Part shown: positions 1 to 45,510 of the stretch, piece by piece
Layout of the letters: each line of letters opens with the position of its first letter
How positions within the stretch are numbered: the stretch's first letter is position 1
IMG/VR virus record: IMGVR_UViG_3300034073_003276
Reading direction: 5' to 3' (one strand)
Length of the DNA: 64,000 nucleotides
From: a virus
Lineage: Duplodnaviria; Caudoviricetes
Notes under the pieces: model-generated
The model's input: the letters and a program-made list of their open reading frames with translations, nothing else
The model's database searches: none
Told to the model about the DNA's origin: nothing
Made by a program: the position numbers and the translations under genes

Positions 1-86
1 AAGAAAATTCTCATGAATCTTTTCATAATACTGTGGAAAAAAGTTTAGGTATTTAGATGTTCCAATAAATGCAATTGCGACTTTCA

Positions 87-878
87 TTAAATTATCACCC
101 AATTTTCAGGAATTAAATCTTTAGTATCTAAATGCTCATTGTTTGAACCTTTAAACCAACCAGAAGGAGCAACAACCTTTTCACTATTCGATAACCATGC
201 ACCCCACCAACTAAAAGAACTATTAGCAATAATATGTGCAGAACAAAGAGACATAAGACAAAGATCTAAAGCATTATTTTTAGTTTGAGAAACCATAAAC
301 CTATCACCACTAAACAGACTATGATTTAAACACCACTCTGGATCATCAGAGAAAATTATAATTTCTCTATCATCATCAAACATATTCAAAGACTGTTCAT
401 AATATTCAATTGGCAAAACCGTATGATTTGGATTAGTAACATAATCCATTCTACGAATGTGAAGAGCTACCGGTTTAGTCCAGTTAGAAACAACCTGTTT
501 CGCAGGTTCTAGAATATTATCATGAAACTGAAAGTCAGTCAATATCTCTTCACGAATATGTTTAAAGTATTTCTCTGACTGAAAAAATCCCTGAAGAGTT
601 ACCCAGTCTGGACAAGTTTCAAATAGTGTTTTATCAAAAGAAAAAGTTTCTTCAGCAACAATTGGACGATCTATATCAATGTATTGATAGTTTAAAGATG
701 TCAAAGTTGACATTCTAAACACGGAATTCAATTGATGATCTGTCCATTCATTTTGATTTTTAGATTTTGGAATACAAATATTATATCCACGATTTGTAGC
801 AATGCCTTTTAGAGATGCATATTGAAACATTTGATTTCCAAGTCTGCCAAGTTGTCCTAATGAATTAAATCCAATCAT
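87..878 (-). CDS. alpha-1,2-fucosyltransferase-like glycosyltransferase (GT11)
   Basis: GRLGNQMFQYA N-terminal motif; GFFQSEKYF, HIRRMDY and IIANSSFSWWGAWL GT11 motifs. Confidence 0.92.
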   Translation of the reverse strand: MIGFNSLGQLGRLGNQMFQYASLKGIATNRGYNICIPKSKNQNEWTDHQLNSVFRMSTLTSLNYQYIDIDRPIVAEETFSFDKTLFETCPDWVTLQGFFQSEKYFKHIREEILTDFQFHDNILEPAKQVVSNWTKPVALHIRRMDYVTNPNHTVLPIEYYEQSLNMFDDDREIIIFSDDPEWCLNHSLFSGDRFMVSQTKNNALDLCLMSLCSAHIIANSSFSWWGAWLSNSEKVVAPSGWFKGSNNEHLDTKDLIPENWVII

Positions 879-21022: not shown

Positions 21023-21214
21023 ATGCCAAGAGAATGGAATACTCCCAAGCGTGAGCCTTGGAACGCACCAATACATAATATCCTAAAAGCAATAGACAAT
21101 CACACTCAAGAATACTTCAAGAGTGGTGATATTTGGCATCTAGAAAAAGCAGAAATGTTAAGAATTTATCTCACAGAATTAAAAACTTGGATACACAAAC
21201 AAGAAAAAAGATGA
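21023..21214 (+). CDS. hypothetical protein
   Basis: 63 aa coupled ORF. Confidence 0.7.
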   Translation: MPREWNTPKREPWNAPIHNILKAIDNHTQEYFKSGDIWHLEKAEMLRIYLTELKTWIHKQEKR

Positions 21215-40493: not shown

Positions 40494-41072
40494 TTAATCT
40501 TCCTCTATATAAAAAATATCTGGATAATTTCCACTTTTTGCCCTATACCTCAATTGTCTTAAGGTTAAACCTTTTGCCCCACCATTTCTAAAACATTTGG
40601 AAGAATCTTCCCATATTATACCGTAAACCGATATTTTTTTTGAGTTGTAATTACTTACAGATTTTTTTATCTCACTTATCAAAGAAGCAGTTTCTGTAGA
40701 ATTAATTTTTCCAAGTTTATTCAGTAAGATGCTCTGCTCCCTTTTCTTTTGTTTATATTCTTCAGATTGATGCGATTGTTTCCATTTTTCAGATTTCAAT
40801 CTTGCCTCCGTTAGTTTTTCACTATCCCTTTTACATCGACTAACTTGATCTTCATAAATTTTAGTTAATTCTTCATCGGATAAATTTCCACCAAGAAGTT
40901 GAAAAGCATATAAATCAGATATATTTTTATATACTAACCAACGACGATAATGGACTTCTTGGTGAAGTTTTCTTGGAAGTTTAACTAAATTACTTGAATC
41001 GTCAGTGCCCCCTTCATGTTTCGGAATAATGTGGTGTGTGTCTATAAACATATATATATGGTTAGTAACCAT
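40494..41072 (-). CDS. HNH homing endonuclease
   Basis: HHIIPKHEGGTDDSSNLVKL...H; late promoter TAAATA at 41077-41082. Confidence 0.88.
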   Translation of the reverse strand: MVTNHIYMFIDTHHIIPKHEGGTDDSSNLVKLPRKLHQEVHYRRWLVYKNISDLYAFQLLGGNLSDEELTKIYEDQVSRCKRDSEKLTEARLKSEKWKQSHQSEEYKQKKREQSILLNKLGKINSTETASLISEIKKSVSNYNSKKISVYGIIWEDSSKCFRNGGAKGLTLRQLRYRAKSGNYPDIFYIEED

Positions 41073-41074
41073 AC

Positions 41075-42094
41075 TTATTTATCATTCTTTAGTCCATATG
41101 AAAATTCCTTTTTAGCAATTTCGTCAAGTTTTTTCATTACATCATCAGTAAAATATTCTTCAGGATTTCTTAGAATCTCCTTACCGTAAATTTTCTTACC
41201 ATTGATTTCATATCTACCAGCAACATTTTTCCAAAGACCACCAATTTCACCAAGTTCAAGCAGACCATAATATCTATCCAGACCTCTTTCATCATAATAA
41301 AGACGCACTTCAACATCTTTATTTTCTTTACTTAAACGGGATTTGTGAGTTTTTGCCTTTACTATATTTCCAACAATTTCAGTCCCATCCTTTTCCTTCT
41401 TCTTGCTTAGGAAAATAATTGTAGAAGCAGCATACTTTAATCCAGATCCTCCAGATTGCTCTTGAGTTGGCACATAAGCACCGACAACTTGATATACATG
41501 ATTAGTGACAATCATAGGAATATTTGCTTGCCCCAGTTTTAGCGTAAGCATACGGAAAGCACCTTTAACAAGTTGCGATTTAGTCATATCACGCACCTGC
41601 TTATCATTCAATGCATCAGTAATTTCCTTTTCAGTTGAAAGCATACCCAAAGAGTCTAGAACAAACATACAAGGTTTACGTTCCTCTACTGGTTTTTTCA
41701 TATACAGATCAACTGCCTTGAGTGCTTTGCCACGAAACTCTTCAATAGTGACAACATTTACTACAACAAGTCGTTGTGTATCAACACCACGACTTTCTAA
41801 AAGAGATTTAGTGACAGCAGCCTCAGTGTCAAAGTAGAGACAGTAACCATCGGGATTAGTATCAAGAAAATTCTTAACCACTGCGAGAGAGAAAAAAGTC
41901 TTTCCAGTAGAAGACTCTCCAGCAATAGCAGTAATCTTATTCCCAGATACACCACCAAATATACTACCTGAAACCAGTGCATTAAAAATGTATGAACCAG
42001 TATCAACATAAGTTTCTGTCTCATCAATATCGGAAGCGAGTTTGGTATACTCCCCACCAACCTCCTTTACAATTTCTTTAAGAAAATCCATCAC
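41075..42094 (-). CDS. uvsX: RecA-like recombinase UvsX
   Basis: AGESSTGKT, DSLGML, GGSGLKYAAS. Confidence 0.96.
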   Translation of the reverse strand: MMDFLKEIVKEVGGEYTKLASDIDETETYVDTGSYIFNALVSGSIFGGVSGNKITAIAGESSTGKTFFSLAVVKNFLDTNPDGYCLYFDTEAAVTKSLLESRGVDTQRLVVVNVVTIEEFRGKALKAVDLYMKKPVEERKPCMFVLDSLGMLSTEKEITDALNDKQVRDMTKSQLVKGAFRMLTLKLGQANIPMIVTNHVYQVVGAYVPTQEQSGGSGLKYAASTIIFLSKKKEKDGTEIVGNIVKAKTHKSRLSKENKDVEVRLYYDERGLDRYYGLLELGEIGGLWKNVAGRYEINGKKIYGKEILRNPEEYFTDDVMKKLDEIAKKEFSYGLKNDK

Positions 42095-42228
42095 TTTTTC
42101 TCCTGAGTTTGTTTATCTGCATAATTCATTTTAAAGGTCCAAAGTTTCTGATATAGTGCAGTATCTCCACCAAGACGCATTGCATTAATAATTGTATTCA
42201 GTTCTCGCTCATTAATAGGTAATTCCAT
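42091..42228 (-). CDS. 45 aa hypothetical protein (MELPINERELNTII...)
   Basis: translated by hand; overlaps the stop/start of both neighbours. Confidence 0.65.
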   Translation of the reverse strand: MELPINERELNTIINAMRLGGDTALYQKLWTFKMNYADKQTQEKK

Positions 42229-43394
42229 CAGGTAAAAAATAATTCTAGGTTAACAGTTTTTTCTACATTCCATCCAATCGAATCGAGAATGGACTTCAAG
42301 GGTTCTACAAAACTCTTTTCAAATTGTAATTCATAATCAATGTATTTGTCAAGACCAAGTTCCTTTGGAAAATCTTGAATGAATGAAATGATATTCTCTT
42401 GAATGATATTTGGTTTTTTCAAATATATAAACTTAATTTTTTCTCCATTACCAATCAATGAATACTTATTAGTTAATTTTTTCTCTTTTATATAATGATT
42501 AAAAAGAAGTGCTCCACGAATATGGATTGGTGTTTTTTGAGCATAGATTGTGGAAGAAGAATAATACTTACGCACATCAGAAGCAGTTCTTGGAAAGGCA
42601 ATTTGCTCTGGTGGAAGTCTTTTAAATTCCTCCCGACACTTATCAATAAAATTAATCACATCTTCTTCAGTACCATTCATCATCAACTTTAGACCATCTT
42701 TAATCATTTGACGACAAGGTGCTGGAGTAGAAGATTTAACTGCTTCAATACCCATCATTTTCAGTTTAGGTTCTTCATATCGTACACCCTCACTGTCCCA
42801 TACATTGAGAATGTATCGTTTCTTAGCAGTCCAGATTCCACGCTCAGCAATATTCTCACGCTTCATCTGCATCTTCTGATCGTAAGCATTTACATACTCA
42901 GCCAATTCTTCGTAGCAACCTTCAATATACTTTTCAAGTTCCACCTTACAGACCTTATCAAGGAACGAAACAATGCTTTGAGTAGTTTTCTCTCTTCCTT
43001 TGAATATACATTCAACCAAAGGACCCATATTGAGATAGATAGAATCAGTATCTGAAGCAATAACATAATCAATATCCTCCGTTTTAAGAACTTTATTTAA
43101 ATAAGAATTCATCTTATTTTCAATCCAGCGAATAGAAACCTGTCCTGACAAAGTAATTGCTTCAGCATTCGCTAGTTTATAATAACGGAAATACTGATTA
43201 CCAATGGCACCATAGGCAGAGTTAAGTTGAATCTTCCTTGCCATTTGAATATTGTTGCAGCGTGAGATTTCTTTTTCAGCAGAATTTCTTAGTTTAATTA
43301 ACTCTTTATCTGAAAGATTTTTATATTTGTTATCAGAAGAAACAACAATTTCTTTTTGTTTCTCCTCCTTGTTACCACCAATTAAGTAACCCAT
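42228..43394 (-). CDS. 43B: DNA polymerase B, C-terminal subunit (gp43B)
   Basis: motif B KIQLNSAYG, motif C ASDTDS, KKRY; begins with about 38 non-polymerase residues. Confidence 0.93.
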   Translation of the reverse strand: MGYLIGGNKEEKQKEIVVSSDNKYKNLSDKELIKLRNSAEKEISRCNNIQMARKIQLNSAYGAIGNQYFRYYKLANAEAITLSGQVSIRWIENKMNSYLNKVLKTEDIDYVIASDTDSIYLNMGPLVECIFKGREKTTQSIVSFLDKVCKVELEKYIEGCYEELAEYVNAYDQKMQMKRENIAERGIWTAKKRYILNVWDSEGVRYEEPKLKMMGIEAVKSSTPAPCRQMIKDGLKLMMNGTEEDVINFIDKCREEFKRLPPEQIAFPRTASDVRKYYSSSTIYAQKTPIHIRGALLFNHYIKEKKLTNKYSLIGNGEKIKFIYLKKPNIIQENIISFIQDFPKELGLDKYIDYELQFEKSFVEPLKSILDSIGWNVEKTVNLELFFT

Positions 43395-44863
43395 TACAGA
43401 ATGCCTCTACGCTTCATTTCTTCTTCAACATCGACTAGTTGTTGTTTTGCTGCCAACATTTTTTTCTTATAAACTGTGCGATCTTTATAGATTTTTTCCA
43501 TTAACTCTGGAAGAAATCCACGCACATCTTTGCGATACATTGCACCATTAGCGCATACTGCATAGTCTTTATACATCTCAAAAGTAATTTCTTGATTAAG
43601 AATTCTATCCACTGTTGCAGTTGGATGTCTATCATCAGTGAGAGTCTCAGGACTAATGTTATACATCATCATAAGGTGTGGATATAGAGAATTCAAGTCA
43701 AAACTTACAACCCAATCATACTTTCCGGGAATTGGTTCTTTTACATAAGCACCAGCATACTTAGAATCTTTCTCAGACTTTTCTTTGGGAGGAATTACAA
43801 TATTTCTCTTCTTGAGATAATTGTAAATGATAGTGTCCCACATTCTAACCTGAGAAAATACATCAGCATAGTTTGCCTTAGCATCATATGCCATCGTAAT
43901 TGCCAACTCAATCAGTTTCATCTTGTCTTCCAGGCGGTCAACAAGTTCCACGTCAATAATGTTGTATTCCACAAACTTTTGCCAACCCTTAGTATAGAAG
44001 TCTTTAAAAGTATCAAACTCAGAGTGGTCTAGTTTTTTCTGTCCCAACTCTACACTTGCAATGTAATCAAGTCGATAAGATTCTTGTGCCTTGTAGGTGA
44101 ATTTCTTATAGAGATTAAGATAATCAAGTTGAGTAATACCACCCACATCATAAGAAATATGTTTACGACCAGCAATATATGTTTCCCTTTCAGTCACAAG
44201 ACCCCAAGGAGACATACGCTTCATCAACTTTTCACCAAGAATTCTATCAATTCTACGCACAAGATATGGAATATCATACAATTCACTATTCCATCCAGTC
44301 ACAACCTCTGGAGTATTTGTTTCGATCATCCACCAGTTAATGAAATCATCTAACAATTCACGCTCAGTTCTAAATCCCTTGTAGATGACATTATCCTGTT
44401 TGTTTGTAAATGGACCTTTACCCCAAGTGCGAATCTGTTTAGAAGAATAATCCTGAATAGTGATCAACAATACTTCTTCTGCTGCAGACTCTACATCAGG
44501 GAATCCATTTTCAGATGCCACCTCAATATCCAAAGTTGTAATCTTAACTTTGTTAGTATCGAATTTGATTTCTTCTTCTGGATAGTTTTCTGAAATATAT
44601 TGGTAGATATATCCAGTGTTTCCGTAGATTTTAAAGTTTTCTACACCCTCATATTTTTTAATAAATTCACGACAGTCTCTAACACATCCTGGTTGGACTG
44701 CTTCAACATATTCACCTTCTAGAGTTTGATATTTAGTTTTTTTATTAGAGGGAACAAAAAGAGTCGGGTCAAACTTCTCACGGGTCATAAAGTGTTTACC
44801 ATCTTCATAACCACGGACCAAGAAGTGGTCCCCGACCATTTGCACGTTTGTGTAGAATCTCAT
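43394..44863 (-). CDS. 43A: DNA polymerase B, N-terminal subunit with 3'-5' exonuclease (gp43A)
   Basis: ExoI LDIEV, ExoII GWNSELYD, ExoIII YNIID, motif A FDLNSLYP; stop after MLAAKQQLVDVEEEMKRRGIL. Confidence 0.95.
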   Translation of the reverse strand: MRFYTNVQMVGDHFLVRGYEDGKHFMTREKFDPTLFVPSNKKTKYQTLEGEYVEAVQPGCVRDCREFIKKYEGVENFKIYGNTGYIYQYISENYPEEEIKFDTNKVKITTLDIEVASENGFPDVESAAEEVLLITIQDYSSKQIRTWGKGPFTNKQDNVIYKGFRTERELLDDFINWWMIETNTPEVVTGWNSELYDIPYLVRRIDRILGEKLMKRMSPWGLVTERETYIAGRKHISYDVGGITQLDYLNLYKKFTYKAQESYRLDYIASVELGQKKLDHSEFDTFKDFYTKGWQKFVEYNIIDVELVDRLEDKMKLIELAITMAYDAKANYADVFSQVRMWDTIIYNYLKKRNIVIPPKEKSEKDSKYAGAYVKEPIPGKYDWVVSFDLNSLYPHLMMMYNISPETLTDDRHPTATVDRILNQEITFEMYKDYAVCANGAMYRKDVRGFLPELMEKIYKDRTVYKKKMLAAKQQLVDVEEEMKRRGIL

Positions 44864-45117
44864 CAGGCAGTCAATTCAAGATACTTTTCAACAATTTCTT
44901 CTTTAGGGTCTACAATAGTAAGTATGCTATCAGAATGAATCATCATTTCTCGTTGGTCAGTTATATCTGGCCAAGGAGTTAAATTTCCTTCAGCATCAAT
45001 CTTAAATGGATTAATCAGTTTACAGTCTGGTTCTCCAAGTTCCGATCCAATTTCAATAATCTCAGTGACGATTACATTATCAACTTTCAGTAAGAGACAT
45101 TTGATTGTTTTGTCCAT
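44863..45117 (-). CDS. Sm-like hypothetical protein
   Basis: GEPDCKLINPF, PW motif; paralog-like to the neighbour. Confidence 0.7.
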   Translation of the reverse strand: MDKTIKCLLLKVDNVIVTEIIEIGSELGEPDCKLINPFKIDAEGNLTPWPDITDQREMMIHSDSILTIVDPKEEIVEKYLELTA

Positions 45118-45409
45118 TTACCTTTTCCTCATACATTTGTTTAAGTGATTCAATTGGGTCTACCAAAGTTACAACCCAATCCATTGTTACTAGCATTTGC
45201 TTGTCTTCGGTCAATAAGATCCAAGGAGTTAAAGATACTTGAATCTTAGCATCATATTCAGATTCTTCTGATAGTAGAATGCTTCTTTCCGTTAAGACTT
45301 TATATGGATTTTCAAAGATATATCCACAAACTTTTTCTTCTGAAACTAATTCTTTAATGTCAGAAATAACAGTCTCACCAGATTTTAATAGTGCAAGTTT
45401 GATTGACAT
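45080..45409 (-). CDS. Sm-like hypothetical protein
   Basis: start at MSIKLALLKSGE; LTPWILL. Confidence 0.7.
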   Translation of the reverse strand: MSIKLALLKSGETVISDIKELVSEEKVCGYIFENPYKVLTERSILLSEESEYDAKIQVSLTPWILLTEDKQMLVTMDWVVTLVDPIESLKQMYEEKVNGQNNQMSLTES

Positions 45410-45430
45410 TTGTATTTTCTCCCTCATCCC

Positions 45431-45510
45431 ATTATAAGGCAAAAAAATGGGGAAGTCAACCTGGATTTTGCCAGAGACTTCCCGCGCCGACGATATTCTT
45501 TATTATTTAT
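45431..45510 (-). terminator. late promoter followed by a long terminator hairpin with embedded -35
   Basis: TATAAATA; GGGAAGTC-TCTGG-CAAAAT-CCAGG-TT-GACTTCCC; T6; TTGACT-17-TATAAT. Confidence 0.65.

Follow-up and report, generated by a model that had tools for sequence, protein, structure and literature searches.

The window analysed here, a 64,000-nucleotide stretch of the IMG/VR virus record IMGVR_UViG_3300034073_003276 (Duplodnaviria; Caudoviricetes), carries a DNA polymerase which, judged by homology, is a family B enzyme of the T4 gp43 type encoded in two cistrons, gp43A and gp43B, divided at the tip of the fingers. Very probably, it is the replicative gp43 of a T4-like cyanomyovirus, whose two polypeptides would act as a heterodimer, with a split that would derive from invasion by a homing endonuclease and a gap between the halves that now stands empty. 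The split itself is not new, as it is already annotated in the cultured Synechococcus phage ACG-2014f. What appears modestly new is the strictly conserved TAATG overlap that would couple the halves, the nearly invariant and split-specific MGYLIGG head of gp43B, and the evidence that short, one-piece and long, split fingertips act as interchangeable alleles, with endonuclease-bearing intermediates.

The features of the gene pair are collected in Table 1. Both products matched Pfam polymerase families above the cut-off: gp43A matched PF03104 (E 9e-20) and positions 18-144 of PF00136, and gp43B matched PF00136 from position 137 onward. With HMMER, gp43A was aligned to residues 3-496 of the solved RB69 gp43 (E 2e-77) and gp43B to residues 513-897 of the solved T4 gp43 (E 2e-66), its start corresponding to RB69 residue 528. 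Since gp43A ends at RB69 496 and gp43B begins at T4 513 or RB69 528, the break falls at the tip of the fingers. Together, the halves span the whole T4/RB69 enzyme collinearly, and the exonuclease motifs Exo I-III as well as motifs A, B and C were all found (Exo II, NSELYD, starts at gp43A residue 192 and Exo III, YNIID, at residue 300); the conservation of the motifs was judged over 16-17 split orthologues. The initial annotation, made from the letters of the window, had described the two open reading frames (ORFs), the exonuclease motifs and motif A in one and motifs B and C in the other, and the fingers-tip break; the ORFs, the Pfam matches and the RB69/T4 alignments all agree with this description. 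Its reading of the junction, a TAATG overlap with GAGG 9 nt upstream, is likewise correct, as are the tail sequences it quoted, and the junction sequence is GAGG-CATTCTGTA-ATG. In the closest isolates, S-SRM01 (84% nucleotide identity), S-SKS1 and Sf-CH5, gp43 is a one-piece protein of 830-833 amino acids (aa).

The reality and the age of the split were assessed from its recurrence. Scanning IMG/VR with the B tail gave 33 loci; the loci in which the halves abut number 28 when one 92.9-kb JGI contig is counted. All 28 abutting loci have the TAATG overlap, although the neighbouring codons vary, and all 28 have AGAGG, AGGGG or CGAGG at the matching distance before the B start. The halves are intact wherever the contig permits (487/489 and 387/388 aa), the gp43A orthologues being intact in about 20 loci, and in a length-limited protein search about 37 of the best 120 metagenome clusters were proteins of 387/388 aa with 78-97% identity to gp43B. 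In the 92.9-kb JGI contig, a 388-aa gene starts on the final base of a 489-aa gene; the same start on the final base of the upstream gene was found for a 388-aa gene in an NCBI assembly contig, where the upstream gene runs off the contig end. Moreover, position 43394 is spanned, with 0 differences and 0 indels, by contigs of four runs, each from a different study (subsurface, estuary, freshwater and marine sediment). Because the junction and the layout recur in 28 other metagenome loci, the architecture is far beyond chance.

Selection was measured among seven diverged split loci, whose synonymous sites are saturated (proportion of synonymous differences, pS, 0.65-0.76; synonymous divergence, dS, between loci above 1.5). 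The proportion of nonsynonymous differences (pN) was 0.076 in the A core and 0.096 in the B core, and the ratio of nonsynonymous to synonymous divergence (dN/dS) in the cores was 0.045-0.07. Next to the break, purifying selection was strong in the A tail (pN 0.055 against pS 0.76) and in B 1-11 (pN 0.005 against pS 0.70); B 12-40 had a pN of 0.24 and a dN/dS of about 0.19. By these comparisons, the tails and the catalytic motifs are under purifying selection, and the split is real, old and functional-looking.

Table 1. Features of the split gp43 gene pair (positions in the window)
Feature	Position	Strand	Description
gp43A cistron, 489 aa	43394..44863	-	N-terminal domain, 3'-5' exonuclease, first part of the palm with motif A, first fingers helix, C-terminal tail
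gp43B cistron, 388 aa	42228..43394	-	N-terminal tail, second helix of the fingers (motif B), remainder of the palm (motif C), thumb, C-terminal peptide ending LELFFT
TAATG stop/start overlap	43392..43396	-	A stop TAA 43396..43394, B start ATG 43394..43392; one base common
Shine-Dalgarno-like GAGG	43404..43407	-	within Arg-Gly codons of the A tail, 9 nt 5' of the B start
A tail LVDVEEEMKRRGIL, residues 476-489	43397..43438	-	prolongs the first fingers helix; not in one-piece cyanophage gp43
B head MGYLIGGNKEE, residues 1-11	43362..43394	-	nearly invariant, split-form specific
B tail KQKEIVVSSDNKYKNLSDKELIKLRNSA, residues 12-39	43278..43361	-	runs into the second fingers helix
Exo I motif DIEV, gp43A residues 112-115	44519..44530	-	D112 and E114 invariant in 16 split orthologues
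Motif A DLNSLYPH, gp43A from residue 389	43676..43699	-	D389-P395 invariant
Motif B KIQLNSAYG, gp43B residues 54-62	43209..43235	-	K54, I55, L57-S59, Y61 and G62 invariant; Q56 and A60 nearly so
Motif C DTDS, gp43B residues 115-118	43041..43052	-	invariant

A cultured counterpart is available in ACG-2014f (Atlauavirus tusconc8). A tblastn search with the first 60 residues of gp43B gave full-length matches, at 50-58% identity, in about 45 GenBank records of this cyanomyovirus, whose gp43 is annotated as two coding sequences (CDS) of 491 and 389 aa. The break is the same as in the window and the tails are homologous, the A tail ending in LVDIEAEMKRRGVL before its stop and the B head containing IGYLIGG, with SDSDYSKLSDKQL further on; the last 50 residues of the A tail region are 74% identical between the two, and nucleotide identity is about 75% where megablast aligns them. 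Unlike the window, ACG-2014f has two small ORFs between the halves (phrog_3538 and phrog_3571, function unknown; 377 nt) and a GTG or non-canonical B start. Because no other match to family B polymerases (PolB) was found in its complete genome (KJ019085, 222 kb), cultured ACG-2014f presumably relies on the split enzyme. The split is not mentioned in the ACG-2014f genome paper (PMC5112629), and no paper describing a split gp43 in cyanophages was found in the open literature. In two isolates (L005 4990..5010 and L006 7990..8010), no ATG, GTG or TTG precedes GYLIGG (the sequence being GAG GTT CTT ATT GGT TAT), and translation of gp43B may start either at ATT or by reinitiation after the TGA of the upstream small ORF; the GenBank gp43B CDS of both begins 62 codons late (325 aa), which is probably a mis-annotation.

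According to Petrov et al. (cited in PMC3061061 and PMC2677866), split fingertips also occur outside the cyanophages, in phages 133, 44RR, 31, 25 and 65, where the cistrons are separated by 2 bp to 3 kb. The precedent named in the initial annotation, split gp43A/B genes with a break in the fingers in Aeromonas and Acinetobacter phages, agrees with PMC3061061 and the 44RR record. In the 44RR2.8t record, genes 43 and 43B are labelled 'split gene', and the pair resembles that of the window in being a T4-type PolB, split at the fingers tip, and in having a gap free of inteins, introns and endonuclease genes. In the MAFFT alignment, about 4 residues separate the 44RR break from that of the window (SRGVKLDH and MELE on its two sides, against RRGIL and MGYL), and the B tails share the pattern LS.(D/T).EL. 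In contrast, 44RR has a 49-nt untranslated spacer (record positions 21171/21221) instead of a 1-nt overlap, its residues adjacent to the break are unrelated and lack GYLIGG, it belongs to another host group, and identity in the B half is about 38%. The idea that the window holds an independent cyanophage split is not supported as it was put, given the same split and homologous tails in ACG-2014f and the nearby break in 44RR; the cyanophage and Aeromonas splits may or may not have arisen independently. By sequence, the window gene is a member of the known class of bicistronic, fingertip-split polymerases.

In Aeromonas phage 25, the gp43 fingertip holds a spacer, a GIY-YIG endonuclease gene and a group I intron (PMC2677866); phage 25 and the cyanophage loci L039 and L090 have in common a free-standing homing endonuclease gene between the halves in the fingertip region, whereas the window has neither an endonuclease gene nor an intron. 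In Aeromonas phage Aeh1, the mobile endonuclease gene mobE breaks the essential enzyme NrdA into NrdA-a and NrdA-b, which carry short tails at the break that are needed for assembly or activity, with no splicing (PMC3045599). This is another enzyme, and its tails arose with the insertion, whereas in the window at least gp43B from about residue 22 is native fingertip. An engineered, fingertip-split Pfu polymerase works, with termination-reinitiation at an overlapping stop/start, and its C-terminal fragment needs the N-terminal fragment to fold (PMC3061061). Together with the split PolB of Methanothermobacter, it indicates that family B polymerases can withstand a break in the fingertip or close to it, although the Pfu split is artificial and lies within the first helix of a short tip and the Methanothermobacter split lies in the palm, both unlike the window.

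In the proposed mechanism, a ribosome terminating gp43A at UAA would restart on the overlapping AUG, aided by GAGG, so that the halves would be made together and in similar amounts. The N-terminal and exonuclease domains would come from gp43A, together with the motif A strand of the palm and the first helix of the fingers; gp43B would contribute the second helix (motif B), the motif C part of the palm, the thumb and the C-terminal peptide. Assembly would be non-covalent, through the common palm and the antiparallel fingers helices, the break lying near the turn of the long hairpin of a T4-type fingertip. Complex prediction for gp43A with gp43B gave an interface score (ipSAE) of 0.84, against 0.00 for the best control; 58 of 80 solved complexes and 2 of 110 mismatched pairs attained the mark applied to this score, counts that hold only roughly here, as the prediction used alignments made for this analysis. 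The prediction runs share at least 91% of their contacts, which include A 472-489 with B 16-57, and the predicted local distance difference test (pLDDT) of the partner was at least 84. The two products are predicted, by modelling, to form a complex, which may be the active polymerase; the presence of the split gene alone in cultured ACG-2014f supports this indirectly.

Much of the tails at the break is native to a long fingertip. The initial annotation described them as extra residues in place of the short turn of a one-piece enzyme. This is true against the one-piece cyanophage enzymes: the tip of the window has 14 + 39 residues, compared to about 9 (YEKTPTKEL) in S-SRM01, S-SKS1, Sf-CH5 and P-HM2, that is, 44 extra codons. 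It is not true against T4 and 44RR, whose fingertip is of similar length, so the tails are extra only relative to the short-tip cyanophage enzymes. When the window enzyme was aligned by MAFFT with those of ACG-2014f, 44RR and T4 and with three one-piece cyanophage enzymes, the window tails filled the columns of the long T4 fingertip, and with HMMER gp43B residues 12-48 align with T4 513-550, the posterior probability being high from about residue 22. From there onward gp43B is homologous, on the alignment, to the long fingertip that T4 carries unbroken. HMMER aligned neither the A tail nor B 1-11 to T4 or RB69, and for the A tail and B 1-21 the likeness to the T4 fingertip is positional only.

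It is conceivable, if doubtful, that the pieces next to the break (the A end RRGIL and the B residues from MGYLIGGNKEE to about residue 21) are new and constitute a clasp, created by the insertion or selected later, which the split enzyme needs in the manner of Aeh1 NrdA-a/NrdA-b, the precedent being that of Crona et al. (PMC3045599). A profile of B 1-70 was compared with 1.84 billion representatives, and the best 150 of 431 hits were examined. Among these 150, profile position 1 was matched only at protein residues 1-6, no one-piece polymerase was matched before profile position 14, and neither GYLIGG nor the RRGIL ending occurred in any one-piece protein, GYLIGG being confined to protein N-termini. 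On this evidence from sequence matches, GYLIGG is specific to the split form. The head is also nearly unchanged as protein, with M1-N8, E10 and E11 invariant and K9 present in 11 of 12 diverged sequences, while its codons vary synonymously, and among the cyanophage sequences seen a long tip always goes with a split. A clasp of this kind could nevertheless account for part of the tails at most, given the homology of gp43B from about residue 22 to the T4/44RR tip; the predicted model has no confident contact for B 1-15, and the sister split alleles L090 and L039 do without GYLIGG, which is therefore not required for a fingertip split as such. The related suggestion of the initial annotation, that the charged tails act as a dimerisation clamp, agrees with the strong purifying selection near the break and with the predicted contacts of A 472-489 and B 16-57; B 1-15, the best-conserved piece, had no confident position against gp43A.

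Every one-piece cyanophage gp43 seen has a short tip and every long tip seen is split. P-HM2, Sf-CH5 and similar phages were considered as one-piece, long-tip forms, as tblastn matches spanned most of the tail in them, and were rejected when translation gave a short tip. On a core tree of 68 sequences built with the tip left out, the state of the tip needs at least 4 changes, forced by the starred branches: the one-piece L062 groups with the window and L008 (support 100), and the split L031 is the sister of the one-piece L101 (support 98). A single split clade is rejected by the approximately unbiased (AU) test (p 8e-13). As the members of each tip type are homologous to one another, the parsimonious explanation is that the tip was exchanged by recombination, and the long split allele would coexist and recombine with a short-tip, one-piece allele. 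One contig of run X4, known from its two sides, joins position 43253 to 43457 and skips exactly the tip (43254-43456), at a depth of 14.5 compared to about 180 for the split form; it probably represents a one-piece allele with a short tip in the same sample. Nucleotide identity of the window to L008 is 0.77-0.87 over gp43A and the start of gp43B and 0.91-0.97 over gp43B alignment columns 1800-2250, a mosaic which suggests recombination inside the gene.

A more far-reaching version, which we regard as speculative, combines a long-standing polymorphism of two fingertip alleles with the clasp. The short, one-piece allele without an endonuclease target and the long, split allele with a gap serving as a landing pad for endonuclease genes and further cargo would be maintained by homing and recombination, and MGYLIGG together with the RRGIL end would be the required clasp of the split form, as in Aeh1 NrdA.

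The endonuclease origin of the split is suggested by sister alleles. The gap of the window holds no endonuclease gene, the halves overlapping by 1 nt. In L090, a 224-aa HNH endonuclease gene (phrog_655, E 4e-26) separates gp43A (tail ending in KSRLEEIESELKKRKIDLNTL before the stop) from a 369-aa gp43B that starts with MELDYSKISTDEL; in L039, the gene between gp43A (tail ending in KKQLEQIESEMKRRELL before the stop) and gp43B encodes a 234-aa GIY-YIG endonuclease (phrog_314, E 5e-35). In both, the break is about 20 codons deeper in the B tail than in the window. The gap ORFs of L039, L059 and L090 were below the cut-off or empty with Pfam, and PHROGs matches were clear for L039 and L090 only, being weak for L059. 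The A tails of the gap-bearing alleles are homologous to that of the window, while the break points and the endonuclease families differ, which points to repeated invasion of the long fingertip or to turnover of the gap content. An endonuclease-occupied gap is the likely earlier state of the window allele, which would be the empty-gap form of a long-fingertip split family, as 44RR is relative to phage 25. The order of events would be a long tip, then invasion by the endonuclease that left the split, then loss of the endonuclease gene. The initial annotation had alternatively proposed that the tails are the scar of a lost mobile insertion; the HNH and GIY-YIG genes in the gaps of sister alleles speak for an insertion, but much of the tails corresponds to native long fingertip.

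The gap carries cargo other than endonucleases as well, as in L033 a 270-aa DruA-like ORF (34..846; Druantia; PF14236 with 26.3 bits against a cut-off of 27; phrog_19197, E 4e-127) directly precedes a gp43B of the GYLIGG type. A second split site of cyanophage gp43 was observed after motif A (the first half ending in NISPETLITQDELNRRIAELESML before its stop) in L059 320..3487, L080 76..1461 and proteins P0095 and P0118. Its gap has a 175-aa ORF with weak GIY-YIG and helix-turn-helix signals, and its C-terminal half of 448-452 aa begins with MELK, followed by MWKDV, and has helical tails of its own. Moreover, dozens of representatives (P0146, P0166, P0168, P0190, P0207, P0220 and others) of 359-375 aa, mutually less than 50% identical, begin with M.(D/N)LS.LSD.EL and look, from their sequences, like gp43B halves split about 20 residues deeper than that of the window. 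Fingertip-split gp43 seems to be widespread well beyond the window lineage.

Several observations weigh against the preferred reading of an endonuclease-derived split with two polypeptides joined in a heterodimer. The order of events had to be reconstructed, because the gap lacks an endonuclease gene and the search for a cyanophage ancestor with a long tip in an unbroken gene found none. The tree assumes a single history for a visibly mosaic gene. Translational coupling is inferred solely from the overlap and the Shine-Dalgarno-like GAGG. The favourable score of the predicted complex may stem from likeness to the solved one-piece gp43 structures, and B 1-15, the most conserved piece of the tails, was not confidently placed against gp43A in that model. 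Folded alone, gp43B was predicted poorly (mean pLDDT 49.9, residues 1-20 below 50), a result which was obtained with a 17-row alignment and is uninformative on the tail; such a poor fold is in line with the need of the Pfu C-terminal fragment for its N-terminal partner.

It is very improbable that a programmed -1 frameshift, or a hop close to the stop codon, yields one full-length polymerase and makes the split only apparent. Admittedly, gp43B lies in the -1 frame with respect to gp43A, and no stop interrupts its frame in the 4-10 codons preceding the ATG. However, there is no slippery heptamer of the form X XXY YYZ, and the bases before the stop vary among the relatives; the RNA of the junction has no stable structure (z-score -0.63), and no recoding element or intron was found with Rfam in 41900-45200 at E up to 1, apart from one chance match to a snoRNA. 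The ATG, the Shine-Dalgarno-like sequence and the invariant N-terminal motif that begins exactly at that ATG are conserved. The halves of ACG-2014f, L033, L090 and L039 have other genes between them and are separated by 0.4-0.85 kb, so fusion cannot be the general mode. Frameshifting or splicing, named by the initial annotation as what would overturn its proposal, thus left no trace in the form of a slippery site, a structure, an Rfam element or an intein.

An error of sequencing or assembly, or a decaying pseudogene of a defective phage, would explain a stop codon within a usually single gene and nothing further; it has almost no probability in view of the 44 additional codons with a Shine-Dalgarno-like sequence, the junction repeated in 28 other loci at dS above 1.5, the identical, indel-free contigs of four studies, the motifs that are invariant or nearly so, and the cultured ACG-2014f isolates with the same split and no other PolB, and the initial annotation was right to discount an indel. 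Hardly any weight falls, too, on a split intein joining the halves after translation, a 'fractured gene' in the sense of Dassa et al. known from cyanophage-like gp41, NrdA and other marine-metagenome genes with endonuclease genes between the parts (PMC2677866): no match to intein or Hint families was found in either half at E up to 0.01, in agreement with the intein-free, two-gene split proposed earlier, the residues foreign to a polymerase (14 + about 21-39) are too few for an intein domain, and much of the tails aligns to the T4 fingertip.

As regards the surroundings of the pair, two small ORFs (44863..45117 and 45080..45442, minus strand) lie directly upstream of gp43A. The first encodes 84 aa of the family DUF6561 (E 3e-32), and its last base is the first of gp43A; the relative L007 has two DUF6561 genes at this place. 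On the other side, the gp43B stop overlaps the start of the next small ORF (42091..42228) by one base. With overlaps on both flanks, the block is a chain of overlapping genes, and a scan for promoters and terminators gave nothing usable within the gene pair. A free-standing HNH homing endonuclease gene occurs further on (40494..41072, minus strand; PF01844 with 24.4 bits; phrog_655, E 3e-12; weak I-TevI DNA-binding domain), with uvsX (41075..42094) on one side and a 185-aa ORF plus gp41 on the other. It looks recently inserted, because in the split-gp43 relative L007 uvsX is directly followed by a 2-oxoglutarate (2OG)-oxygenase gene. Its likeness to the gap endonuclease of L090 is confined to the HNH motif (E 4e-4).

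Overall, the fingertip of T4-type polymerases appears to be a hot spot of gene breakage in abundant aquatic cyanophages too, beyond the phages of Aeromonas and Acinetobacter, and a split replicase can last under strong selection across saturated synonymous divergence. As gp43 is a marker of cyanophage diversity, surveys and pipelines that expect one ORF will truncate or mis-call the split allele. The abutting, cargo-free form offers a clean natural system for the assembly of split family B polymerases and the role of short tails, and the series from an empty gap through small ORFs to endonuclease genes may be seen as snapshots of the life cycle of homing endonucleases in an essential gene.

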